36,256 nt of DNA from Desulfobacteraceae bacterium (GCA_030613575.1 JAUWLP010000003.1:1-36256); one strand, 5' to 3'; counted from the first letter of the stretch, positions 883 to 16,259 are shown. Translations and numbers: made by a program. The notes: a model not told the origin generated them from the letters alone.

Positions 883-2916
883 ATGCGCATATTTAAAAGA
901 GAAAAGGGCCAAACAGAAGAATTGTCATCGGAAATAGATGAATTAAAAGAAAATGTCATTAAATCTAACATGCCGGAACAGGTAGAAAAAGTGACATTTA
1001 AAGAAATAGAAAGGCTTTATAAAACCAGTCCTTCCAGTGCAGAATATACCATCGGTATAAATTATATCGATTATCTGGTCAGTCTTCCCTGGAATAAAAT
1101 GACCGACGACAATCTTGATATTAAACGGGCTGAATCAATCTTGAATGAAGAACATTATGGGCTGGCTCAGATTAAAGATCGGATTCTCGAACATCTTGCA
1201 GTCAGAATATTAAAGATGTCCCGCCGGCATAAGATATTGGTTGTGGATGATGAAAAAATTACCCGCCGGAATCTGGAGCATGTTTTTAAAAAAGACGGCT
1301 ATCATGTCAATACTGCTGCCAGCGGAGCTGAAGCCCTGAATTTTCTGGAACAAAGCGCCTTTGATGTTATTGTAACCGATCTTAAAATGGGAAAAGTCGA
1401 TGGTATGGCGGTCCTGGAAAAAGCAAAGGACATTAATCCGGCCACGGAAGTGATTATCATCACCGGATACGCCACGGTGTCAACAGCCATTGAGGCCATG
1501 AAAAAGGGATCATACCACTACCTGACAAAACCATTGAAGCTTGATGAGATCAGATCGACTATCCGGAAAGCGCTGTTCAAGAAAATGGTCCGGCTGGAGC
1601 CCAAAGGTCCTGTTCTCTGTTTTGCCGGACCACCCGGTACCGGGAAAACTTCTCTGGGGATGTCAATTGCCCGGAGTCTGGAACGAAAATTCGTACGTAT
1701 GTCTTTGGCCGGAATGAAAGATGAGTCTGAAATAAGGGGGCATCGTAAAAGCTATGTCGGTGCATTACCCGGCAGAATCATCCAGGAAATTCGTCGCGCT
1801 GAAACCAAGAACCCGGTTATTATGCTTGATGAAATCGACAAAGTCGGTCGTGACTTCAAAGGAGACCCTGCCGCTGCGTTGCTGGAAGTTCTCGATCCTG
1901 AACAGAATACTAATTTTGTTGATCATTATCTGGATGTTCCCTTTGATCTGTCACGTGTTATGTTTATCGCCACCGCAAACGCTCTTGATCTGATTCCCGG
2001 CCCGCTTCTGGACCGGCTGGAGGTTATTACCCTTTTGGGGTATACTGAAGAAGAAAAAGAAAAAATCGCCTCTAACTATTTAATACCCAAAGAAATAGAA
2101 GAGGCCGGCCTTTCGGATAATCCGCCTGTTTTTACTTCAGAGGCAATCCACAAAATCATCAGGGAATACACAAGAGAAGCAGGACTGAGGAATCTTAAAC
2201 GCCAGATATCGTCCATTTGCCGCAAAATTGTCCGGGAAATCTTAAGCGATAGAAATAAAAACGAGCCAAAAATGATAACTCCCGAAATGGTGGAGAGCCT
2301 GCTGGGTCCCAGAAAATTTTATTTTGAAGTCGCCGAAGCCAAAGAAAGAATAGGTGTGGCAACAGGGCTGGCATGGACCGAGGCGGGCGGGCAGATTATT
2401 TTCATCGAGGCTGCCAAGATGAAAGGAAAAGGGAATCTTATCTTAACCGGTTCTCTGGGTGATGTGATGAAAGAATCTGCTCAGGCGGCAATGAGCTATA
2501 TTCGAAGTAATGCCGGATTATTAAATATTTCTGACAATATGTTCGAAGAGCATGATATCCATATTCATGTACCGGCAGGCGCAATTCCCAAGGATGGTCC
2601 TTCAGCCGGCCTGACCATCGCGGTAGCTCTTATATCTTTGATAACAGACCGCCCCTGTAAAAGAGATACTGCACTGACAGGAGAATTGACATTAACCGGC
2701 AGAATTCTTCCTGTGGGGGGAGTAAAGGAAAAAGTTTTAGCGGCTCACAGGGCCGGGGTGAAGTCGGTTGTTTTTCCCGCTAAAAATGAAGCCGACATCA
2801 AAGATATTTCGGAAGATATTAAAAAGGATCTGGATATCATCAAAATAAATGAATTAGAGGAGATAGTTGATCTGGTTTTAAAGCAAGGAAATAGTTCTAA
2901 CAACAATGAAATATAA
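883..2916 (+). CDS. lon: Lon-type ATP-dependent protease with inserted response-regulator receiver domain, lacking the Lon N-domain
   Basis: Walker A GPPGTGKT, Walker B IMLDEIDK, catalytic PKDGPSAG and downstream Lys (GVKEKV). REC domain ILVVDDE...VTDLKM...IITG...LTKP at about aa 116-232. Confidence 0.92.
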   Translation: MRIFKREKGQTEELSSEIDELKENVIKSNMPEQVEKVTFKEIERLYKTSPSSAEYTIGINYIDYLVSLPWNKMTDDNLDIKRAESILNEEHYGLAQIKDRILEHLAVRILKMSRRHKILVVDDEKITRRNLEHVFKKDGYHVNTAASGAEALNFLEQSAFDVIVTDLKMGKVDGMAVLEKAKDINPATEVIIITGYATVSTAIEAMKKGSYHYLTKPLKLDEIRSTIRKALFKKMVRLEPKGPVLCFAGPPGTGKTSLGMSIARSLERKFVRMSLAGMKDESEIRGHRKSYVGALPGRIIQEIRRAETKNPVIMLDEIDKVGRDFKGDPAAALLEVLDPEQNTNFVDHYLDVPFDLSRVMFIATANALDLIPGPLLDRLEVITLLGYTEEEKEKIASNYLIPKEIEEAGLSDNPPVFTSEAIHKIIREYTREAGLRNLKRQISSICRKIVREILSDRNKNEPKMITPEMVESLLGPRKFYFEVAEAKERIGVATGLAWTEAGGQIIFIEAAKMKGKGNLILTGSLGDVMKESAQAAMSYIRSNAGLLNISDNMFEEHDIHIHVPAGAIPKDGPSAGLTIAVALISLITDRPCKRDTALTGELTLTGRILPVGGVKEKVLAAHRAGVKSVVFPAKNEADIKDISEDIKKDLDIIKINELEEIVDLVLKQGNSSNNNEI

Positions 2917-3853
2917 TCACCTTTTCGGACCGGTTCCTTCACGACGGTTGGGGATTTCCCTTGGCGTTGACCTGGTTCCATTGAAAACATGTACATTAAA
3001 TTGTATCTACTGTGAATGCGGTCGTACAACCAATTTGACTTTAGAGCGAAAAGAGTATGTGCCGTTTACCGCGGTTAAAGAGGAACTTACTTTCTATTTT
3101 GCCAATAATCCGAGACCGGACTATATTACCTTTTCCGGTTCAGGTGAACCGACCTTAAATTCAAGAATCGGTGATGTGCTACGTTTCATAGAAAATCAGA
3201 ACCCTGATATTTCTGTTGCGTTATTGACAAATGGGACCTTATTTTCAGAAAAGCAGGTTCGAGAAGATGTTAAGGATGTTTCGGTCGTCATTCCTTCGCT
3301 GGACGCTGCAACGGAAAAGATATTCAAAAAGATAAATCGCCCATCTCCTCATTTACAAGTTGATACAATCATTGACGGGTTAGTCCGGTTCCGCAAAGGA
3401 TATAGCGGGCTAATTTGGCTGGAAATATTTATAGTCCCCGGCATGAATGATACCGAGCATGAATTGACAGCTTTAAAACAGGCCATTGAAAAAATTGAAC
3501 CGGACCGGGTCCAGCTTAATACGCTCGACAGACCCGGACCGGTTTCCACTCTTCGCGCGGCCACCCGGCAGGAACTTGAACGAGTACTCGATTTCTGGCA
3601 GCTTGAAAATGTTTCCATAATCGCTGATGTGTCTGAAAGAAAAGATCTTCTTGCCTATCGCACAGACACCGAATCTACTATTTTGGGAACCATTGCCAGA
3701 CGCCCGTGCACGTTAAAAGATCTGTCTGAAATTTTAGGATTGCAGATTAATGAAGTGAACAAATATCTGGATGTCCTGGAAGTAGACGGAAAAATAAAAG
3801 TTGTAAAGCAGAAGAGGGGATTTTTTTATCAGTTAAAGAAGACGGCTCTGTAA
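2906..3853 (+). CDS. Radical SAM Fe-S protein (COG0731-like) with C-terminal HTH-like region
   Basis: FGPVPSRRLGISLG N-terminus, CTLNCIYC motif, TFSGSGEPTL; overlaps the lon stop. Confidence 0.85.
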   Translation: MKYNHLFGPVPSRRLGISLGVDLVPLKTCTLNCIYCECGRTTNLTLERKEYVPFTAVKEELTFYFANNPRPDYITFSGSGEPTLNSRIGDVLRFIENQNPDISVALLTNGTLFSEKQVREDVKDVSVVIPSLDAATEKIFKKINRPSPHLQVDTIIDGLVRFRKGYSGLIWLEIFIVPGMNDTEHELTALKQAIEKIEPDRVQLNTLDRPGPVSTLRAATRQELERVLDFWQLENVSIIADVSERKDLLAYRTDTESTILGTIARRPCTLKDLSEILGLQINEVNKYLDVLEVDGKIKVVKQKRGFFYQLKKTAL

Positions 3854-4627
3854 CAAGGCTGTTTTTTTGAGATATTGAAAAACCAAAGGCCCTTCGGAAG
3901 AAGCCTGTTCCTTTCCTGATGCAACCTTTTGAATAAAATCGATTTTTTCTCTGTCAAAACTTCCTGTCTGCGTTTCGATCAATTTCAAAGAGTTGTGAAT
4001 GATGCTGTAAAGGACCATGGGGCCATACAGAACCTCCCCGCTTTCTTTTTGGGCTAACGCACCGACAATTTTATGGTGACCAATCCTGAAGGCTTTTGGC
4101 GGCACAGTGTAACCCAGAATTTCGGCAAAAAGATCCATAGATTCAATAACCCCGTCTGCATATTCTCTTTCCAGGGATGCCGTGCCGTTCTGTGCTATTT
4201 CATCGAGGTCGGATTCATCGTAGGAGAGATCCAAACGGTCGATACATTCTTTTTGAATTGTTTTTACAGATTCCTCTTTTTTACTGATGACTACATCGGT
4301 ATCCTTTAATATCTTGATAACATTAAACGGGTTCATCATTTCCTTTACCGTGGGGCTTTTACGCATGGCCACGTCATAAACGGAAGTATTGTAAATAGCC
4401 AGATCATTGTCCAGAACCAGAATCCTGGTTTTTTCGGCATCAACATCCTCGATAAAAAGATCGAGATCACGCTTTCTTTTATATGTATAGGAAGTCATTT
4501 CAAGAAGACTGCGCATGATTTTCTTGTCAACCTTGAGGCCACTCTCCACAGGACCGATTGAAGCGACAACCTGCTTTGCCATTGCATTGATTTTTATCTT
4601 CTGTAAAAGATTTTCTTTAAAAGGCAT
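3833..4627 (-). CDS. Hypothetical protein (264 aa)
   Basis: Long ORF with AAGGAGG RBS; no motif recognised. Confidence 0.7.
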   Translation of the reverse strand: MPFKENLLQKIKINAMAKQVVASIGPVESGLKVDKKIMRSLLEMTSYTYKRKRDLDLFIEDVDAEKTRILVLDNDLAIYNTSVYDVAMRKSPTVKEMMNPFNVIKILKDTDVVISKKEESVKTIQKECIDRLDLSYDESDLDEIAQNGTASLEREYADGVIESMDLFAEILGYTVPPKAFRIGHHKIVGALAQKESGEVLYGPMVLYSIIHNSLKLIETQTGSFDREKIDFIQKVASGKEQASSEGPLVFQYLKKTALLQSRLL

Positions 4628-4821: not shown

Positions 4822-6111
4822 ATGACTGAATATGCCAAGATTGAATTTGAAGGAAAAATATATGAATTCCCGATTATAGTCGGCTCTGAAGGGGAAAAGG
4901 CCATCGATATATCAAATCTTCGCCAGATGACGGGTTTGATTACACTCGATCCGGGATACGCCAATACCGGTAGTTGCATCAGTTCCATCACCTTCATGGA
5001 CGGTGAAAAGGGAATTTTGCGTTATCGTGGTATTCCGATTGAAGAGCTGGCCGAGCATTCGAGTTTTATTGAGACAACCTATCTATTAATCAACGGGAGG
5101 CTTCCTACAAGAGACGAACTCAACCAAACTTCGATTCTTTTCAATGACCATTCTCTGGTGCATGAGGATATGCAGATTTTTTATCAGAACTTTCCCAGGG
5201 CATCCCACCCCATGGGAATCCTTTCAGCCATGGTAAACGCTTTAAGAAGCTTTTACCCCGAACTCCAGACCATCGAAGAGGAAATAAACATTACGGTTAC
5301 CCGTCTGCTTTCCAAAGTAAGAACCATGGCAGCCATGTCTTATAAAATATCCAGAGGTCATAAGGTGGTTTACCCCCGGCCGGATCTCTCGTACTGCGCC
5401 AATTTTCTGAACATGATGTTTGACACGCCGGTCAAGCATTATGACATCGATGAAGACCTGGTCAAAGCATTAAATACTTTCTGGATTCTTCATGCGGACC
5501 ATGAACAGAACTGTTCTACTTCGGCGGTTCGGCTTGTGGGAAGTGGAAGGGTAAACCTTTATGCCGCGATTTCCGCCGGCATTGCAGCCCTCTGGGGCCC
5601 CTTGCATGGTGGCGCCAACCAGGCCGTTATCGAAATGCTTTCCGACATTCAAGAAGACGGCGGCAATTATCATCGGGCGATTGAAAGAGCTAAAGATAAA
5701 AAAGACCCTTTTCGGCTCATGGGTTTTGGGCACAGAGTCTACAAGTCGTATGACCCCCGTGCCAAAATCATGAAAAAGATGTGCCATAAGGTTCTTAAAA
5801 AACTCCACATTACCGATCCGTTACTCAATATGGCAAAGGAACTCGAAGCGGCGGCCTTAAAAGACGATTATTTCATCGAATATAATCTGTATCCCAACGT
5901 CGACTTTTACAGCGGCATAATACTGCGTGCCATGGGCATTCCCACCAACATGTTTACGGTCATGTTTGCCATCGGCAGGCTTCCCGGATGGATTGCCCAG
6001 TGGAAAGAGGGCGCCGACGATCCCAAATGGAAACTGGGTCGACCCCGCCAGATTTATACGGGCCCTAAAAAGACACAATATATACCTATTGATAAGCGAT
6101 GCACGCAGTAG
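4822..6111 (+). CDS. gltA: Citrate synthase (type II-like)
   Basis: HADHEQNCST, GPLHGGANQ, LMGFGHRVYKSYDPRA and YPNVDFYSG motifs. Confidence 0.97.
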   Translation: MTEYAKIEFEGKIYEFPIIVGSEGEKAIDISNLRQMTGLITLDPGYANTGSCISSITFMDGEKGILRYRGIPIEELAEHSSFIETTYLLINGRLPTRDELNQTSILFNDHSLVHEDMQIFYQNFPRASHPMGILSAMVNALRSFYPELQTIEEEINITVTRLLSKVRTMAAMSYKISRGHKVVYPRPDLSYCANFLNMMFDTPVKHYDIDEDLVKALNTFWILHADHEQNCSTSAVRLVGSGRVNLYAAISAGIAALWGPLHGGANQAVIEMLSDIQEDGGNYHRAIERAKDKKDPFRLMGFGHRVYKSYDPRAKIMKKMCHKVLKKLHITDPLLNMAKELEAAALKDDYFIEYNLYPNVDFYSGIILRAMGIPTNMFTVMFAIGRLPGWIAQWKEGADDPKWKLGRPRQIYTGPKKTQYIPIDKRCTQ

Positions 6112-7220
6112 ATACGGAGCTTAGATGTTTACTGCAACAACTCACCCTGGGTTCAGCGGTAAAGCCGGTAAATTTGCTTGAGGAAAGAGAAGCCTTCCTA
6201 TATCCTCGTCTGACACGCAGAGTAAAATCTCCTGTATTTAGGTATAATAACTCTCCCTCACAATGGGCTGATTTTGAGCCGGTTTTGTCTCTTGATTCCG
6301 TGGATGCTCCTGAAGAGGTAGTTGAAATCTACCGGGAAAAGCAGCGGGAACTGGATATAACGAGGAATATGTTCGCTGCGGTCGGCAGTGACGGATTTAC
6401 ACAATTTGCCATTGAAATCTTCGGCGCCCCAACCGCTGAAGACGCTCGGCAATCTCGCAAGATTCTTGGGAAATTGTCGGATGTTACACCTCCGGAACAA
6501 AACTGTTCGGCAAAGGAGTTTGCAAAGCTGCTCGAGACCCGCTTACGGGAACTCGGCATTTCCATGGATATTAGGCCGATATCTTCCATGGCGACAAAGG
6601 TGTGGGTAGACAGCGTTTCCCGCGCAATCTATCTTAATAAGAATTCCCTTTTTGCACACCAGGAAGTAAGACGCCTTTTAGTGCATGAGATAGATGTACA
6701 CGCCACTCGTATTCACAATGGTTCTTGCCTGCCGTGGGGCATTTTCTCCATGGGTACGGCAGGATACAGGGAAGCCGAAGAGGGGTTGGCAGTCCACTTT
6801 GAACGCCAATCAGGACACCTTTATCCCTTCCAGGAGAAAATTTACGCGGGGAGATGCCTGGCGGTATACCTCTCGCTTTCATCCGGCTTTGTGGAAGTTT
6901 TCGAGGAGCTGCTGATCTATTTCGATGAAAAGACGGCTTACACTATTGTGGAGCGAATTAAACGGGGATTGACAGACACATCCCGTCCGGGTGCGCTTAC
7001 AAAAGAATTCCACTACTTCACCGGTCCCGCAAAGGTTCGGTCGTATCTTCACGAAGGGGGTAATCTTCTAGTGCTTTTGGCCGGAAAAATAGCTTTTAAA
7101 CACGCACGAATCATAGCAAAACTGGTGCAAGAAGGACTTGTAAATACCTCAAAATGGGTCTTCCCGTTGGAGATGAACGATGATAGAAAATCTGCACCAG
7201 CTGAAGGATACTCTGAGTAA
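6099..7220 (+). CDS. DUF1704 / MATCAP-like (QEGLA-motif) zinc carboxypeptidase
   Basis: HEIDVH (HExxxH) at aa 196, downstream EEGLA ligand motif, and RIKRGLTDT...TKE.HY C-terminal signature. Confidence 0.82.
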   Translation: MHAVDTELRCLLQQLTLGSAVKPVNLLEEREAFLYPRLTRRVKSPVFRYNNSPSQWADFEPVLSLDSVDAPEEVVEIYREKQRELDITRNMFAAVGSDGFTQFAIEIFGAPTAEDARQSRKILGKLSDVTPPEQNCSAKEFAKLLETRLRELGISMDIRPISSMATKVWVDSVSRAIYLNKNSLFAHQEVRRLLVHEIDVHATRIHNGSCLPWGIFSMGTAGYREAEEGLAVHFERQSGHLYPFQEKIYAGRCLAVYLSLSSGFVEVFEELLIYFDEKTAYTIVERIKRGLTDTSRPGALTKEFHYFTGPAKVRSYLHEGGNLLVLLAGKIAFKHARIIAKLVQEGLVNTSKWVFPLEMNDDRKSAPAEGYSE

Positions 7221-8607
7221 GTGCCGGGGAACCTGGGCCTGGGTGGGGCAGAGGGGAGTCGATGCATATGCAATGGAAGACTTTGTTCCCACAGATGTAG
7301 TGTTCTGTTGCGACTTTGGTGAGGAGTATTCCAAACTTTGTACGATGGAGTCCCTATTTTCTGTTGAAAAAGATCTCGGGAGGCGGGAAAATTGGGGGAA
7401 TCGGGATCTTGAAAAGTTGTGGGAAGGGTCAATCCGGAAACGGATTGAAACGTACATCGACAAATTAAAAGCTCCCATCAACACAGTCTGTTATCGTTCT
7501 CTTGCGGTTCTGGAGAAAGACAGACGCTTTCGCCTTTTAGCACCTTCCCTGGCACTTAAGAACATGTTTGACGATAAGTTGTGGCAACTGGAACTGTTCT
7601 CCGGATTGAAGGTAAAGACACCAAAAACTTTTGTGCGCTGTCTGGGTGAAATTACTTTTATTGAAGCAAGCGATATTATAGACGGCCCGTTTGTCGTGCA
7701 GCCTCCAGTGGGCTCTTCCGGGGAAAACACCTATATTGTCAGCAATGAGTCCGACTTTGACAAGGCAAAGGAGGTTCTTGGCCCCGCTCAACGGGTGAAA
7801 CTGTCCAAATACATGCCGGTGCCTTCGTTAAACGGACATTGCGTGGTGCTGCGTACCCGGGAAGGATTGAGTGCAATCGCTGTCTGCCCTTCAGTTCAGA
7901 TTGTAGGCACCCGCGGATGCACAAACCGGGCTGAAATTTACTGTGGAAATGATTTTTCAGCTGCCCATAAGGTTCACAAATCCGTGATAGAAGAAACCTG
8001 CACAATCATGGAGAAGATGGGCCTTTTCATGGGCAGTAAAGGCTTTCTCGGGATTTTCGGCATGGATTTCCTTTTAAACGGTTATGAGGTGCTGGCGCTG
8101 GAAATAAACCCGAGGTTTCAGGGGTCAACAATGCCTCTGTCTCTGCTGCAAGTAGACAGGGGAGAAGTGCCCTTGACCGCCCTGCACGTGATGCAGTTTA
8201 TGGGCCTCATAGAAGAGTTCTCCCAAAAGTTCCTCCTGCAGTTGGGAAGGATGTACCGGGATCCTTATTCAGGCGCCCACTTGATCGTCCATAATCTGGA
8301 AAGCAAATCTTGCCGTATGGAACACGATCTGAAAGCAGGCATATACACTCTGTTGGATGACACCCTCGAGTGGGTTCGAAGTGGAGCGACCTATCGTGAC
8401 GTGGAAAGTTCCAATGAGTGGTGTATCCTGGGCAATCTTCCATTCCAGACTATAGAAATCTGTGAAGATGCCCGCATTGCCATGATACAAACCAGTGAAA
8501 GTGTTCTTGACGACAATTTACAACAACTCGAGCCCTATGCTGCGGCTTTTGTGAAGACACTTCAAAGTCGCTTCAGTGTGATTCCCTTTCATGGAGGTAG
8601 TGAATGA
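7180..8607 (+). CDS. ATP-grasp ligase (divergent family)
   Basis: FDDK, PFVVQPPVGSSGENT loop, YCGNDF, GIFGMDF and LEINPRFQGST (ExNxR). Confidence 0.85.
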   Translation: MIENLHQLKDTLSKCRGTWAWVGQRGVDAYAMEDFVPTDVVFCCDFGEEYSKLCTMESLFSVEKDLGRRENWGNRDLEKLWEGSIRKRIETYIDKLKAPINTVCYRSLAVLEKDRRFRLLAPSLALKNMFDDKLWQLELFSGLKVKTPKTFVRCLGEITFIEASDIIDGPFVVQPPVGSSGENTYIVSNESDFDKAKEVLGPAQRVKLSKYMPVPSLNGHCVVLRTREGLSAIAVCPSVQIVGTRGCTNRAEIYCGNDFSAAHKVHKSVIEETCTIMEKMGLFMGSKGFLGIFGMDFLLNGYEVLALEINPRFQGSTMPLSLLQVDRGEVPLTALHVMQFMGLIEEFSQKFLLQLGRMYRDPYSGAHLIVHNLESKSCRMEHDLKAGIYTLLDDTLEWVRSGATYRDVESSNEWCILGNLPFQTIEICEDARIAMIQTSESVLDDNLQQLEPYAAAFVKTLQSRFSVIPFHGGSE

Positions 8608-10211
8608 AACAATTCTCATCGGAAACTTACGAAATAGAACAGCGTTTTGTCGAATTGTATTCCCTTGGCCATAATGGACCTATGGTTGAGGCGCCGTTTT
8701 ACCTTCACGCCCTGGGGTTTGACAGCGAACCAGGGAGACTCGGAGCGGAACTCATCTCTTCTTTCAATAAGCTGGCACAAAAAGACAAAGAACTGTCCAA
8801 GTATGCATTGGATTTTACGGATGCCACCAATTTCCCCGAGACTATTGTCTTGATTGATGCTTCCAACGACCGGCTTCCGACCGGCCCTGAATCCTTTCGG
8901 GTATTACAGGACGAGACAACACGGTCAGGTATAAAGGCTCGTTGTTTACTGGTGAACACAAAGGAAGAACTGATGGAGGCTGTGAATGAAAACCCCAAGT
9001 CTACCTTGGTTATAAGTGAATGTGTTGACTCCAGTGCGTACAACGTTGAAGTCCTGGAGATTCTCGAGCGTATGGGAGTTATTGTACTGCCCGGGCGGGT
9101 CACGGCACCGGGGTACATCTTCTCCGACAAAGGGACCACCTACCAGATGCTTCAAGATGCGGGACAAGAAAATCTGCTGGCACGATACGTATTGGCACCT
9201 GCATCACAAATGAACACTTCCCGGGTAGTTTCGACTATTTTAGATAGTGTAGATGAATACTCTCGAAAATGGAAAACCAACCGCTTCTTTGTAAAACCAG
9301 TCACTGGCGGCAGCGGTGTAGGAGGATTCCGGATATCGCTCACAAACAAAGGGTATTTCGTTCCCGACCTTTCCAAGGTCACCGGAGATGCTTTAGAAGT
9401 CCATCCCATCCATATGGACGTGGATCCGCAGGACGACCACAGGCTTGACGAACTCTTGTGGATTTTTTCCTTGTTTTCAGCCGACCCATATTACAGCAGG
9501 CAATACATGTGGGTGAGCCTTGAGACGCTGAAGCACCGCTATGGAACCGACGATGACCGGGAGGCACTCAGGCAGCACCTGTTAAAGACTATCGCAATCC
9601 ACACAGCCAAGGTTGAAGAGAGAAGTCTGGACCGCAACAGTATGCACGCAAAGCTTGAAGATGCTGTCCGGCAATACGAAGGGTACTTCTCCAAACGATA
9701 TGATCCGGTAATCTGCGAGTATATCGACTTCGGAGCATGGGGACTCAGAGCTCACTATCGCCTCACCGACCGGGGCATACAGCTCGAGTGCGTATACGCC
9801 AGGATTTTTCAGTTGGCCCTGACCGAAGAAGGGGCCTGTTATGTCGGTTCCGACAACATTTCCAACAAACACACCGGGGTGCTCGAGGCTGTGCGGCTTA
9901 CCCCCATAAAAGAAGTCATGGTTAATACAGTAGGGGGCAGCGCTGCTTTCCAAGACCTTCTCAGGAAAGGAGGCCTGGCCGCTTCGGCGCTTGTTTCTAC
10001 TCAGGAACCTGAATTGCGCCGCCGCATCCCGGTGCGCTGCCAGATGGACTTAGCACCTATTGGTGGGAAAATAGGAGAAGGCAACGCAGACACAGCCAGA
10101 GGACAAGCCCTGGGGACGAAATGGCCTGACTTCGTAGCCAACATGCGGGAGTGGTTCAAGGATTGCTTAAGACTCTATTCTCTCCGAAGATCAGTCAATG
10201 AGAAAACTTGA
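8604..10211 (+). CDS. Atypical ATP-grasp-fold protein with large insertion
   Basis: FSDK, FFVKPVTGGSGVGG, VICEYID and QMDL...GEGN (ExN) motifs; ATGA overlap with the upstream gene; GGAGG RBS. Confidence 0.7.
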   Translation: MKQFSSETYEIEQRFVELYSLGHNGPMVEAPFYLHALGFDSEPGRLGAELISSFNKLAQKDKELSKYALDFTDATNFPETIVLIDASNDRLPTGPESFRVLQDETTRSGIKARCLLVNTKEELMEAVNENPKSTLVISECVDSSAYNVEVLEILERMGVIVLPGRVTAPGYIFSDKGTTYQMLQDAGQENLLARYVLAPASQMNTSRVVSTILDSVDEYSRKWKTNRFFVKPVTGGSGVGGFRISLTNKGYFVPDLSKVTGDALEVHPIHMDVDPQDDHRLDELLWIFSLFSADPYYSRQYMWVSLETLKHRYGTDDDREALRQHLLKTIAIHTAKVEERSLDRNSMHAKLEDAVRQYEGYFSKRYDPVICEYIDFGAWGLRAHYRLTDRGIQLECVYARIFQLALTEEGACYVGSDNISNKHTGVLEAVRLTPIKEVMVNTVGGSAAFQDLLRKGGLAASALVSTQEPELRRRIPVRCQMDLAPIGGKIGEGNADTARGQALGTKWPDFVANMREWFKDCLRLYSLRRSVNEKT

Positions 10212-13096: not shown

Positions 13097-13768
13097 ATGC
13101 AAGAATTAGGTAGAATACACCAGTTGATAATCCCTTTTATGGGACGTGAAATCATTTTCAATCTTGAAGTCATGTTTATGACCTGGATTGTCATCACAGT
13201 GCTGCTTGTTTTCGGTTTTTTTGCCACTCGAAAAGCAAGTATGCTTCCCGGGCCGGTACAGGTATCTGGAGAAATATTCGTAAAAATGATTTACGATATG
13301 ACCGAAGATGCGCTGGGCGAACGTTCAAAAACATATGCCCCCCTTATATGCGCTTTGTTCATGTTTTTACTTACCTGCAACTGGATAGGGCTGTTTCCCC
13401 ATCTTCATGAGCCCACGAAAGATCTTAATACACCGTTAAGTCTCGGCATTATGGGGTTTTTTATTGCCCATTATGCTGGAATAAGGGCCAAGGGTATTGG
13501 TTCATATCTTAAAGAATACTGCGAGCCGATCTTTTTGATGGCACCGCTAAATGTTATCGGAGAACTTGCCAAAGTGGTTTCCATCTCCTTTCGTCTGTTT
13601 GGAAACATCATGGGCGGCTCGATCATTATCCTTGTAGTATCGTATCTGACTTTTAGCATTCTTCTTCCACCGTTTCTTAATTTCTTTTTCGTGATTTTCA
13701 TAGGTGCAATTCAGGCCTTTGTCTTTACAATGCTAACACTTGTTTATATTTCGGTACAGGTACATTAA
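13097..13768 (+). CDS. atpB: ATP synthase Fo subunit a
   Basis: PTKDLN, SISFRLFGNI (essential Arg) and IQAFVFTMLTLVY. Confidence 0.95.
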   Translation: MQELGRIHQLIIPFMGREIIFNLEVMFMTWIVITVLLVFGFFATRKASMLPGPVQVSGEIFVKMIYDMTEDALGERSKTYAPLICALFMFLLTCNWIGLFPHLHEPTKDLNTPLSLGIMGFFIAHYAGIRAKGIGSYLKEYCEPIFLMAPLNVIGELAKVVSISFRLFGNIMGGSIIILVVSYLTFSILLPPFLNFFFVIFIGAIQAFVFTMLTLVYISVQVH

Positions 13769-13771
13769 CAT

Positions 13772-14746
13772 ATGGCATATGATATTCAAACATGGGGGAA
13801 TATTGCTGCTTTTGTCGGAGGCGGAATGTGCATGGGAGTCGGCGCAATAGGAGCAGCTATTGGTGAGGGTTATACGGCGGCGGAAGCCAATTTGGCTATA
13901 TCGAGGAACGCGGAATCGGCCGGCGATATTTTTAAATCCATGCTGATTGGGCAGGCCATTGCTGAGTCTGCCTCGATTTTTGCCCTGGTAATTGCGATGA
14001 TACTGCTGTTTACGAAGTTCTCGGTAACGTCTTATGTAACAGTATGTGCTATATTCGCGGCGGGATTATCAATGGGATTTGGGGCTATCGGTTCCGGCAT
14101 AGGCGCAGGTTTTCCGGCCGGGGCCGCCTGTACCGGCATGTCCCGGCAGCCGGCCATGAGCGGCAAATTAACCACAAATATGCTAATCGGTTCAGCAGTG
14201 TGCCAGACCCCATCTATTTTTGCACTTGTAGTATCCTTTATTTTGTTATTTACAGATTTTTCCGGATATCCGGTTTCACCTGGATGGGCGGCTATGCTGG
14301 GTGCAGGGCTTGCTATCGGACTGGGTGCCATAGGCTCGGGTATCGGTGGCGGCGTGGTTGCCGAATCGAGTTGTGATGGAATTGCAAGGCAGCCCCTAAC
14401 GATAACACCTGTAACAAATGTAATGCTTCTGGGGCAGGCCATTGCTCAAACCCCGGCCATATTGGGCCTTTTAATTAGTTTTATTCTTATCTATAAGGGC
14501 TTTCCCGCAACAGACTCGCTTGCCCCCTCCATGGCCCTGCTTGGGTCTGGTATATGTATGGGAGTGGGTGCTATCGGTCCGGGGATCGGTGAAGGCATAG
14601 CCTCTAGTGGCGGAGTAAAAGCGATAGCAAGAAACCAGGAAGTTGTTGGAGTTATAATGCGGTCGATGTTGGTAGGAATGGCTGTTGCCGAGTCAACAGC
14701 AATATACTCAATGGTTATTGCACTGGTCATGATTTTTGTGGCGTGA
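13772..14746 (+). CDS. atpE: Quadruplicated (four-hairpin) ATP synthase c subunit
   Basis: Four ~80-aa c repeats, each with a GxGAIG.GIG helix and an RN/RQP loop. Ion sites read AESASIF (E65), CQTPSIF (Q145), AQTPAIL (Q226) and AESTAIY (E307). Confidence 0.9.
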   Translation: MAYDIQTWGNIAAFVGGGMCMGVGAIGAAIGEGYTAAEANLAISRNAESAGDIFKSMLIGQAIAESASIFALVIAMILLFTKFSVTSYVTVCAIFAAGLSMGFGAIGSGIGAGFPAGAACTGMSRQPAMSGKLTTNMLIGSAVCQTPSIFALVVSFILLFTDFSGYPVSPGWAAMLGAGLAIGLGAIGSGIGGGVVAESSCDGIARQPLTITPVTNVMLLGQAIAQTPAILGLLISFILIYKGFPATDSLAPSMALLGSGICMGVGAIGPGIGEGIASSGGVKAIARNQEVVGVIMRSMLVGMAVAESTAIYSMVIALVMIFVA

Positions 14747-15219: not shown

Positions 15220-15675
15220 ATGCACATTGTCAGCAACATAGCCCTTATAAGTATAAATGGGACGTTATTTTTTCAGCTGATTTCGTTTCTGATCTTCCTG
15301 TTTATTATAAACCGGCTTATGTTTCGTCCTTTACGAGGCGTAATGAGTGAAAGAGATAACCATATCGAGAAAATCAAACAGGATATTATTGATTCAGAAA
15401 ATGAGCTCAAGAATGTAACAAACCAACTTCAACAAGAGGAGTCAGCAGCTAAGGATGAGGCTTTTGAGTTACAGCAAGAACTCGAAGCTGAAGCAAGCCG
15501 ACAAGCTGGTGAAATATTTGTTTTTGTTAGGGACGAAATTGAAACCATAAAAGAGAAGGCTCAAAAAGAAATTGACGCTCAGATATCTGAAGCCAGAAAA
15601 GATATCCGGAAGGAATCTGAAGCCCTGGCATTCAGTATCATGGAAAAGATTCTGGATCGGAGACTGGTTCCATGA
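15220..15675 (+). CDS. atpF: ATP synthase Fo subunit b'
   Basis: INGTLFFQLISFLIFLFIINRLMFRPL..VMSER followed by a charged coiled coil. Confidence 0.9.
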   Translation: MHIVSNIALISINGTLFFQLISFLIFLFIINRLMFRPLRGVMSERDNHIEKIKQDIIDSENELKNVTNQLQQEESAAKDEAFELQQELEAEASRQAGEIFVFVRDEIETIKEKAQKEIDAQISEARKDIRKESEALAFSIMEKILDRRLVP

Positions 15676-16259
15676 AAAGAGTTAATAAAACAGTTAGGTT
15701 GTGCTGCTTTATCGTAGCGGGAGCCACTAGTTTTCATTTTTTAGGACTTGACGCTCTGGCATCTGAAGGTTCAGGCGGCTGGCGACCCATATATGATGAA
15801 ATTCTATTATGGATTAATTTCGGAATCATCGCCTTTGTTTTTGTTAAATACGGAAAAACGCCTTTAATGAATTTCTTGCGGGGTCAAAAAGAGAAAATAG
15901 CACAGGATATAGAACGAGTAGAGCAAAAGAAGGAAAAGGCTGCAAATAGAATCAAAGAAATCCAAAAAGTGCTTGATGAAAAAGATGCTCGCTTTGCTAT
16001 AATAAAAGATCGAATTGTTCGACAAGGAGAAAGGAAAAAGCAGGAAATTGTCGAATCTGCTCAGCAGCAAAGTAAAATGATGCTAAATGATGCCAGGCGA
16101 AGGATAGATAGCCAATTTGGCCAGGCAAAAAGAGCGTTCCGGGCGGAATTGATAGACGCAGCAATCGAATTGGCCATGCAAAGACTTCCCCAAGAGATTA
16201 CTGATGAAGACAACGATAAATTCTCGGACCAATACCTGGCCAGCAAATTATCAGACTAA
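15672..16259 (+). CDS. atpF: ATP synthase Fo subunit b
   Basis: Leader, [23 protein letters not shown] and coiled coil; ATGA overlap. Confidence 0.88.

Follow-up and report, generated by a model that had tools for sequence, protein, structure and literature searches.

A MATCAP-family peptidase gene joined to two dissimilar, putative ATP-grasp ligase genes forms a conserved, patchily distributed bacterial module

Three overlapping genes

We analysed a stretch of 36,256 nucleotides from a Desulfobacteraceae bacterium (GCA_030613575.1 JAUWLP010000003.1:1-36256; hereafter the window, with positions counted from its first letter), in which three overlapping genes encode a peptidase of the MATCAP/DUF1704 family (PEP) and two dissimilar proteins predicted to be ATP-grasp enzymes (AG1 and AG2). 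The three genes form a unit of ∼4.1 kb and, with the citrate synthase gene directly 5' of PEP, lie as follows.

6099-7220, + strand: PEP, MATCAP/DUF1704 peptidase, 373 aa
7180-8607, + strand: AG1, putative ATP-grasp enzyme, 475 aa
8604-10211, + strand: AG2, member of an orphan family with a predicted ATP-grasp fold, 535 aa
4822-6111, + strand: citrate synthase (Pfam Citrate_synt, 3e-134)

The positions and common strand of the three open reading frames (ORFs), and their overlaps of 41 nt (PEP/AG1) and 4 nt (AG1/AG2), agree with an earlier reading of the window that a model had made from the sequence only. At the second junction the ATG of AG2 shares an ATGA with the AG1 stop. A point absent from the sequence-only reading is that the start of PEP in turn overlaps the citrate synthase stop by 13 nt. 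The annotated starts are credible, since orthologues align from residue 1 and Shine-Dalgarno-like sites precede the ATG of AG1 at 7180 (GGAG, 9 nt before) and that of AG2 at 8604 (GGAGG, 7 nt before). Contigs of a second, independent DNA run from marine sediment span every gene junction, which rules out an artefact of assembly. Matches to promoters and to terminators within the block occur at chance levels (10 against 6.9±2.0 and 7 against 7.0±3.1, respectively), and the citrate synthase gene is probably co-transcribed with the trio. None of the RNA runs was listed as containing the stretch, and one true RNA run gave no match at all; two runs labelled metatranscriptomic, which are flagged as probably DNA, yielded short contigs only, 90-97% alike.

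All three proteins appear to be cytoplasmic. Our survey of ORFs and Pfam domains found no transporter, precursor peptide or regulator gene in the window, as had been claimed, while the 'housekeeping' neighbours between which the trio had been placed proved not to belong to the unit (see below). Neither PADLOC nor PHROGs returned a match that would link the locus to anti-phage defence or to phage.

The peptidase

PEP matches the Pfam MATCAP model PF08014 at 1.4e-42 (146.4 bits against a cut-off of 27; profile positions 38-346 of 365) and the human MATCAP chains 7z5g/7z6s in the PDB at 2.5e-5. The HExxxH and EEGLA motifs named in the sequence-only reading are present as HEIDVH at residues 196-201 (H196/E197/H201) and EEGLA at residues 227-231, and they align to HEIGTH and EEGLA of human chain 7z5g. 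H196, E197, H201 and E228-G-L-A (to A231) are invariant among 24 aligned family members, two of them of the QEGLA type. On these matches PEP is a zinc metallocarboxypeptidase of the MATCAP/DUF1704 family, its carboxypeptidase activity being predicted. It is not a QEGLA equivalog, as its score against TIGR02421 (160.8 bits) falls under the equivalog cut-off of 338.65, and it lacks the N-terminal extension of ∼285 amino acids that QEGLA-type bacterial members carry. The gene is present in single copy in the genome. To our knowledge, no bacterial MATCAP/DUF1704 member has an assigned biochemical function.

Two ATP-grasp proteins of different clades

AG1 matches Pfam ATP-grasp_3 at 6.3e-10 (39.8 bits, cut-off 23.2). 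Its best NCBIfam match, over nearly the full length, is NF005096 (PRK06524, 'biotin carboxylase'; 3.7e-21), with 74.8 bits against a cut-off of 684; LdmS (2.1e-6), PurT and MfnD also match weakly, and rimK_fam reaches 13.9 bits (cut-off 143.4). Every one of these NCBIfam matches lies far under its cut-off and AG2 has none, in keeping with the expectation that the ligases would not map to a characterised pathway. PRK06524 itself had its cut-off exceeded in 0 of 301 phylum genomes and 0 of 14 control genomes, and we found no mention of it in the open-access literature searched. A 28-sequence AG1 profile matched, in order, the PDB entries 7r8p (an ATP-grasp protein, which we take to be the L-Asp--L-Met ligase LdmS), the biotin carboxylase (BC) domain of pyruvate carboxylase, 8yi6 (L-propargylglycine--L-glutamate ligase), PurK, PurT and CPS. 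The AlphaFold2 model of AG1 (pLDDT 92.5) has three domains, and Foldseek returned at least 500 ATP-grasp matches for it in the PDB at E≤1e-3, with biotin-carboxylase domains first (3e-16), followed by PurK, PurD and PurT (3e-16 to 1e-14 for BC and PurK). The invariant motif of the protein is E308-I-N310-P311-R312-F-Q314, of which the ExNPR presumably serves ATP/Mg binding. By sequence and model, AG1 is best classed as an ATP-grasp protein of the biotin-carboxylase/PurK/PurT/L-amino-acid-ligase type.

No sequence match to AG2 was found in Pfam (the C and N models of Dala_Dala_lig included), NCBIfam or the PDB, even with a 31-sequence profile, and its placement among the ATP-grasp enzymes comes from AlphaFold2 and Foldseek. 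The model (pLDDT 88.8, pTM 0.90) gave 245 PDB matches at E≤1e-3 with probability 1.00, all named ones being ATP-grasp enzymes. The best of these are D-Ala:D-Ala ligases (6e-7; TM-score to target 0.5-0.64), ArgX/LysX being nearly as good at 1.3e-6; also among the best are 1ehi and 4fu0, D-Ala:D-Lac and D-Ala:D-Ser ligases from resistance operons. Language-model neighbours, which we treat as leads only, carry RimK/GshB/YheCD/Ddl families, and in one such neighbour cluster (Atlas) TTL occurs in 18% of members. As modelled, AG2 is an ATP-grasp fold of the Ddl/LysX type, with a large helical insert of ∼85 residues at about residues 278-362. In its N-domain D89, T93, E96 and R99 are invariant. Its invariant motifs are a glycine-rich loop, K231-P-x2-G-G-x-G-x-G-G-F-R (invariant at K231-P, G235, G236, G238, G240 and G241), and E492-G-N494; judging by eye against ATP-grasp motifs, we take these to be the putative ATP and Mg sites.

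The AG2 family is small, sharply bounded, highly conserved and without a database model. About 110 columns are invariant across 31 sequences down to 39% identity. Only 40 clusters (50% identity) matched among 1.84 billion representatives, and the 152 proteins found at E≤1e-3 in a set of 5.8 billion are all unnamed or 'hypothetical'. Single-protein scans of a metagenome collection with the most distant relatives, P0128 and P0127, found no further relative, and no fused form was seen among proteins of 938-2675 aa, which is weak evidence. AG2 occurs once in this 82%-complete metagenome-assembled genome. A scan of the genome with PF07478 identified a bona fide Ddl on contig C71 (190 bits) and did not match the contig of the trio; RimK-type genes are likewise present elsewhere in the genome.

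The two proteins had been described as dissimilar, and at a profile-profile probability of 6% AG1 and AG2 are indeed unrelated at the profile level, and they belong to different ATP-grasp clades. They are therefore not a TTLL-like pair of initiase and elongase paralogues, and our results lend no support to the initiase/elongase division of labour in the sequence-only reading. Neither protein matched Pfam TTL (PF03133) at E≤0.01, and neither reaches the GSH-S_ATP or RimK models, AG2 giving no match to them at all. The statement that neither ligase is GshB/RimK-like holds by sequence but not clearly by structure, AG2 lying on the Ddl/LysX/RimK/GshB side by both fold and language model. A prediction of a complex between AG1 and residues 12-535 of AG2 scored 0.00 against a mark of 0.32; run without controls, it is uninformative on binding.

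Synteny, co-inheritance and distribution

We collected 68 loci with an AG2 relative from a scan of one genome per species and limited the synteny counts to loci with enough upstream DNA. The relatives came from Desulfobacterales (76-93% identity) and from Omnitrophota, 'Planctomycetia', Elusimicrobiota, KSB1 and other bins (35-44%). AG1 immediately precedes AG2, on the same strand, at 17 of 17 Desulfobacterales-type loci and at 38 of the 39 other loci, the exception being L057, where AG2 stands alone among unrelated genes. PEP lies upstream of AG1 at 17 of 17 Desulfobacterales-type loci and at 27 of the 34 others (it is missing from L028, L033, L034, L047, L052, L057 and L064). When all loci are pooled, AG1 precedes AG2 in 55 of 56 and PEP is present in 44 of 51. 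The possibility, raised at the outset, that the trio might not be syntenic elsewhere can thus be set aside, as the arrangement is found in distant phyla.

Across these loci the junctions within the trio are mostly 4-nt overlaps. The pairwise distances of the three proteins correlate with r of at least 0.94 (37 loci with all three near full length), indicating that the unit is inherited together, although the kinship of the loci means that this cannot count as independent evidence of co-evolution. The trio has no conserved companion in any lineage, be it a small ORF or a gene for a carrier protein, target, transporter or regulator. The best explanation is that the trio is a self-contained module, inherited and exchanged as a unit. 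PEP is nonetheless not a fixed part of it. When five of the PEP-less genomes, whose completeness is not known, were searched whole, a MATCAP-family gene was found in 0 of 5. Since PEP has been lost in some lineages, the ligase pair can stand alone and an eraser is not obligatory, contrary to the earlier picture of a cycle with an eraser built in.

Within the family of the window AG2 was detected in 23 of 52 genomes (11 of 21 high-quality ones). It was found in one of 15 other genomes of the genus and in 3 of 201 genomes of the order, all three within the same family, and in 8 of 251 genomes of a phylum sample around an Omnitrophota carrier. Decayed copies were also observed: at L066/G206 an AG1 fragment and a 123-aa remnant of AG2, from its C-terminal end, lie beside citrate synthase (L066 1726-2188), and in G246 the AG2 gene has two in-frame TAA codons. 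The sampled distribution and the decayed copies together show the module to be accessory, patchy, repeatedly lost and common to distant phyla. The DNA runs that contain the stretch are cold-seep and marine-sediment metagenomes.

A second architecture with a MATCAP-family peptidase

MATCAP-family genes were found in 4 of 401 genomes of the phylum, including this one, and in 0 of 14 control genomes. We examined two of the three other phylum genes. Both are of the QEGLA type and are directly followed by a GshB-type ligase gene, as expected from the remark in the sequence-only reading that a GshB/RimK-type ligase is the usual bacterial partner of DUF1704. One of the two QEGLA proteins was scanned with NCBIfam and scored 336.1 bits with TIGR02421, its adjoining ligase reaching 486 bits with PRK12458, above the cut-off. 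The two QEGLA genes (L073 1447-3369, - strand; L075 616-2559, + strand), from other Desulfobacterota, are translationally coupled to the PRK12458 GshB-type ligase gene.

These pairs resemble the trio in peptidase family and motifs, and in gene order, the peptidase gene standing ahead of an ATP-grasp ligase gene with which it is translationally coupled. They differ in having one GshB/RimK-type ligase where the trio has two ligases of other types, and in the size of the peptidase, which is ∼645 aa with the N-terminal extension as against 373 aa without it in PEP. The extension has no Pfam match in either of the examined proteins, and we rejected the idea that it is a hidden AG1 homologue (hhalign probability 0.4%). 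The AG2 profile gave an hhalign probability of 0.3% with the GshB-type ligase of the QEGLA pairs. A MATCAP-family peptidase is consequently joined to ATP-grasp ligases in two distinct operon architectures.

Flanking genes

Citrate synthase and a divergent 264-aa gene adjoin the trio only in Desulfobacterales, and same-genus genomes without the trio keep a radical-SAM gene, the 264-aa gene and citrate synthase (90-94% identity), their downstream genes being different. We considered citrate synthase as a part of the system and rejected it, since it is adjacent only in Desulfobacterales and is kept at this identity where the trio is missing. The 264-aa ORF (window 3833-4627, - strand) has no Pfam match and is found at 68-91% identity beside citrate synthase whether the trio is present or absent. 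The radical SAM protein encoded at 2906-3853 (+ strand) has a C-terminal winged-helix (MarR/DprA_WH-like) and is kept upstream in same-genus genomes. A second citrate synthase, 33% identical to that of the window, lies on contig C195 of genome G000 (L070), and same-genus genomes carry both types.

The neighbourhood is a different one in Omnitrophota, where an SPL-like radical SAM gene (470 aa, with a ∼200-aa N-terminal extension) and a nitroreductase gene lie on the 5' side and genes for CstA, NadE, GH130, PTS-EIIA and a CofD/YvcK-like protein on the 3' side. In 22 Omnitrophota loci the gene after AG2 encodes CstA, a 'carbon starvation' transporter; L027 (3130-5258 and 9904-11610) typifies these ∼22 loci, with radical SAM and nitroreductase before the trio and CstA after it. 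Omnitrophota loci without PEP are also without the nitroreductase. The SPL-like radical SAM protein was rejected as a partner, as a homologue occurs in 45 of 52 genomes of the window's own family, with or without the trio. The downstream genes differ again in Elusimicrobiota (CobA/BtuR, DUF2092).

Two further genes of the window are recorded here as side observations. At 13772-14746 (+ strand) a 324-aa ATP synthase c-subunit ORF contains four separate PF00137 stretches, suggesting a c subunit in which four hairpins are fused; atpB (13097-13768) precedes this ORF and two b-type subunits (15220-16259) follow it. At 883-2916 (+ strand) a Lon-type protease (AAA and Lon_C) carries an N-terminal response-regulator receiver domain.

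Proposed function and alternatives

Our tentative proposal, which we hold to be nearly as probable as its negation, is that the two ligases would build a short cytoplasmic peptide and that the carboxypeptidase would trim it. Our analysis shows the gene structure, the folds, the retention of the presumed catalytic motifs, the synteny and the accessory distribution; that AG1 and AG2 are active ligases, in which order and on which substrates they work, and that PEP acts on what they make, we infer. The two mechanistically distinct ligases would each convert a carboxylate to an acyl-phosphate and couple it with an amine: AG1 would form the first amide, and AG2 would then attach a further residue at the C-terminal carboxylate so created. 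This would yield a short non-ribosomal peptide or pseudopeptide, from which PEP would take off the last residue so as to turn the product over, recycle it or control its level. The acceptor would most likely be a free small molecule and not a protein.

The recurring pairing of ATP-grasp ligases with MATCAP-family peptidases, in the trio, in the QEGLA pairs and in TTL against MATCAP in eukaryotes (PMC10499314), suggests by analogy that both enzymes would share one carboxylate, to which the ligase attaches a residue that the peptidase takes off. We favour a free small peptide because the relatives of AG1 are small-molecule enzymes, AG2 has dipeptide ligases as its best structural matches and no target or carrier gene is linked to the trio. 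The conservation of the unit, the second MATCAP/ATP-grasp architecture and the invariance of the presumed catalytic residues in all three proteins also point to a two-step peptide. Known small-molecule amidoligases (LdmS, the BesA-type propargylglycine--Glu ligase, PurT and Ddl) have the same folds and include the nearest detectable sequence relatives of AG1, but AG1 matches them far under the family cut-offs and AG2 has no sequence match to them. We know of no small-molecule amidoligase that forms a conserved trio with a MATCAP-type peptidase.

Several points weigh against the two-step peptide. AG2 matches ArgX/LysX, which ligate at the C-terminus of a carrier protein, nearly as well as it matches Ddl, and AG2, with its ∼110 invariant columns, is unusually constrained, as an enzyme with a macromolecular substrate or partner might be. 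It would also be uncommon for a synthesis operon to include an enzyme that degrades its product, except where the peptidase has a maturing or regulatory role. Outside Desulfobacterales, 7 of 34 loci lack PEP, and 0 of 5 such genomes had it elsewhere, so its role is dispensable, and since the fold of AG1 is closest to carboxylases AG1 may not be an amide ligase. The scheme is moreover drawn from genes and predicted folds. Finally, the only characterised MATCAP-family peptidases act on protein C-termini, namely as carboxypeptidases and deglutamylases on the tails of tubulin (PMC10499314).

This last point leads to protein C-terminal tagging, in which one or both ligases would add residues to a C-terminal or side-chain carboxylate of a protein encoded elsewhere and PEP would remove them. 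We consider this less likely than the peptide but plausible, and more probable than the other alternatives. A protein substrate has been demonstrated for the eukaryotic tubulin cycle, and protein tails are the substrates of the characterised MATCAP-family enzymes (PMC10499314). That cycle, of TTL and MATCAP (TMCP1-2; KIAA0895L/KIAA0895), shares with the trio a homologous peptidase and an ATP-grasp ligase family opposed to a carboxypeptidase; unlike the eukaryotic case, where the genes are unlinked, the trio comes without tubulin and its ligases without a Pfam TTL match. A bacterial precedent for an operon of writer and eraser is RimABK of Pseudomonas, in which an ATP-grasp enzyme, RimK, polyglutamylates RpsF (ribosomal protein S6) and the RimB protease removes the glutamates (PMC11957791), but which has a single RimK-type ligase where the trio has two unrelated non-RimK ligases. 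The structural match of AG2 to ArgX/LysX (1.3e-6), the RimK/GshB/YheCD families among its language-model neighbours (a lead only) and its very strong conservation would all suit a protein substrate. RimK targets are not known to be encoded beside the ligase, so the missing linked target gene is compatible with tagging.

On the other side, we know of no ATP-grasp protein of the AG1 type (biotin-carboxylase/PurT/Lal-like) that modifies proteins, and in Pfam neither AG1 nor AG2 shows a match to TTL or RimK. Several lineages have kept both ligases but lost the eraser. The system is also patchy within a single genus (1 of 15 other genomes), so any tagged target must tolerate the absence of the trio. 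Self-modification is unlikely too, as the C-termini of PEP, AG1 and AG2 are not conserved between phyla and the 'GGSE/GGSK' ending of AG1 is limited to Desulfobacterales. In its most specific form, tagging would amount to a prokaryotic 'C-terminal tail code', in which two unrelated ATP-grasp writers would add residues to a conserved cellular protein at its tail and an eraser of the MATCAP type would remove them; this we rate as slightly more doubtful than tagging in general.

A reserve or protective polyamide, similar to cyanophycin or poly-glutamate, seems improbable to us. The ligases would extend a backbone and a branch, or alternating residues, and PEP would release C-terminal residues. 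Such a cycle needs at least two different ligase activities and an exopeptidase, RimK makes poly-alpha-L-glutamate in a synthesis modulated by RimB (PMC11957791), and an accessory, patchy distribution would suit a storage trait. However, Pfam and NCBIfam revealed nothing in the trio that resembles cyanophycin synthetase or a Mur-ligase domain, and there is no primer or granule-associated gene. The CstA gene after AG2 in the 22 Omnitrophota loci could be taken in favour of a polyamide, but in this one lineage the whole neighbourhood is conserved, so the adjacency may be mere vertical synteny, which counts against it.

It is more improbable still that AG1 is a carboxylase or another carboxyphosphate-forming enzyme, whose carboxylated, carbamoylated or ureido-linked product would then be ligated by AG2. 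The top Foldseek matches of AG1 are biotin-carboxylase domains and PurK (3e-16 to 1e-14), and its best NCBIfam match, over nearly its whole length, is to a 'biotin carboxylase' family, yet that match has 74.8 bits where 684 are called for, and no biotin carrier or carboxyltransferase gene was found in any locus. The catalytic Glu that follows ExNxRxQ in biotin carboxylase would presumably correspond to Ser316 in AG1, which also argues against a carboxylase.

Least probable of all is that PEP clears a competing or precursor substrate, as VanX/VanY do beside VanA, in a module that re-routes a peptide precursor, for example of the cell envelope, towards a different terminus: resistance operons of the Van type pair a Ddl-fold ligase with zinc peptidases and D-Ala:D-Lac and D-Ala:D-Ser ligases (1ehi, 4fu0) are among the structural matches of AG2, but AG2 has no sequence similarity to Ddl (no PF07478 match), the bona fide Ddl of the genome lies elsewhere (contig C71, 190 bits), the trio proteins appear cytoplasmic and have no dehydrogenase, racemase or regulator partner, and PEP is unrelated to VanX/VanY.

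Novelty and significance

Operons of a ligase and a peptidase are of a known kind. The composition of the trio and the AG2 family appear to be undescribed in the literature that we searched, with supplements and Iyer et al. 2009 lying outside the search. In the open-access full texts we found nothing on DUF1704 or MATCAP together with ATP-grasp and only an unrelated mention of DUF1704 alone, and no functional study of QEGLA was found there by title or abstract. The amidoligase survey of Iyer et al. 2009 (Mol Biosyst) may contain an earlier mention of such operons.

The trio and the QEGLA pairs tie a MATCAP peptidase to ATP-grasp ligases in two operon architectures, and AG2 stands for a family that has no database model. 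As the unit spans ∼4.1 kb, appears to be cytoplasmic and has no visible accessory genes, it is directly testable in a heterologous host. Such a test would reveal either a novel non-ribosomal peptide pathway that includes its own turnover or a novel way in which bacteria modify protein tails, and either would bear on the origin of the ligase/carboxypeptidase logic of eukaryotic tubulin. If a tail code were to prove true, AG2 would found a new family of protein-modifying ligases, and the pairing of ATP-grasp and MATCAP would be an ancient bacterial invention with at least two operon architectures.

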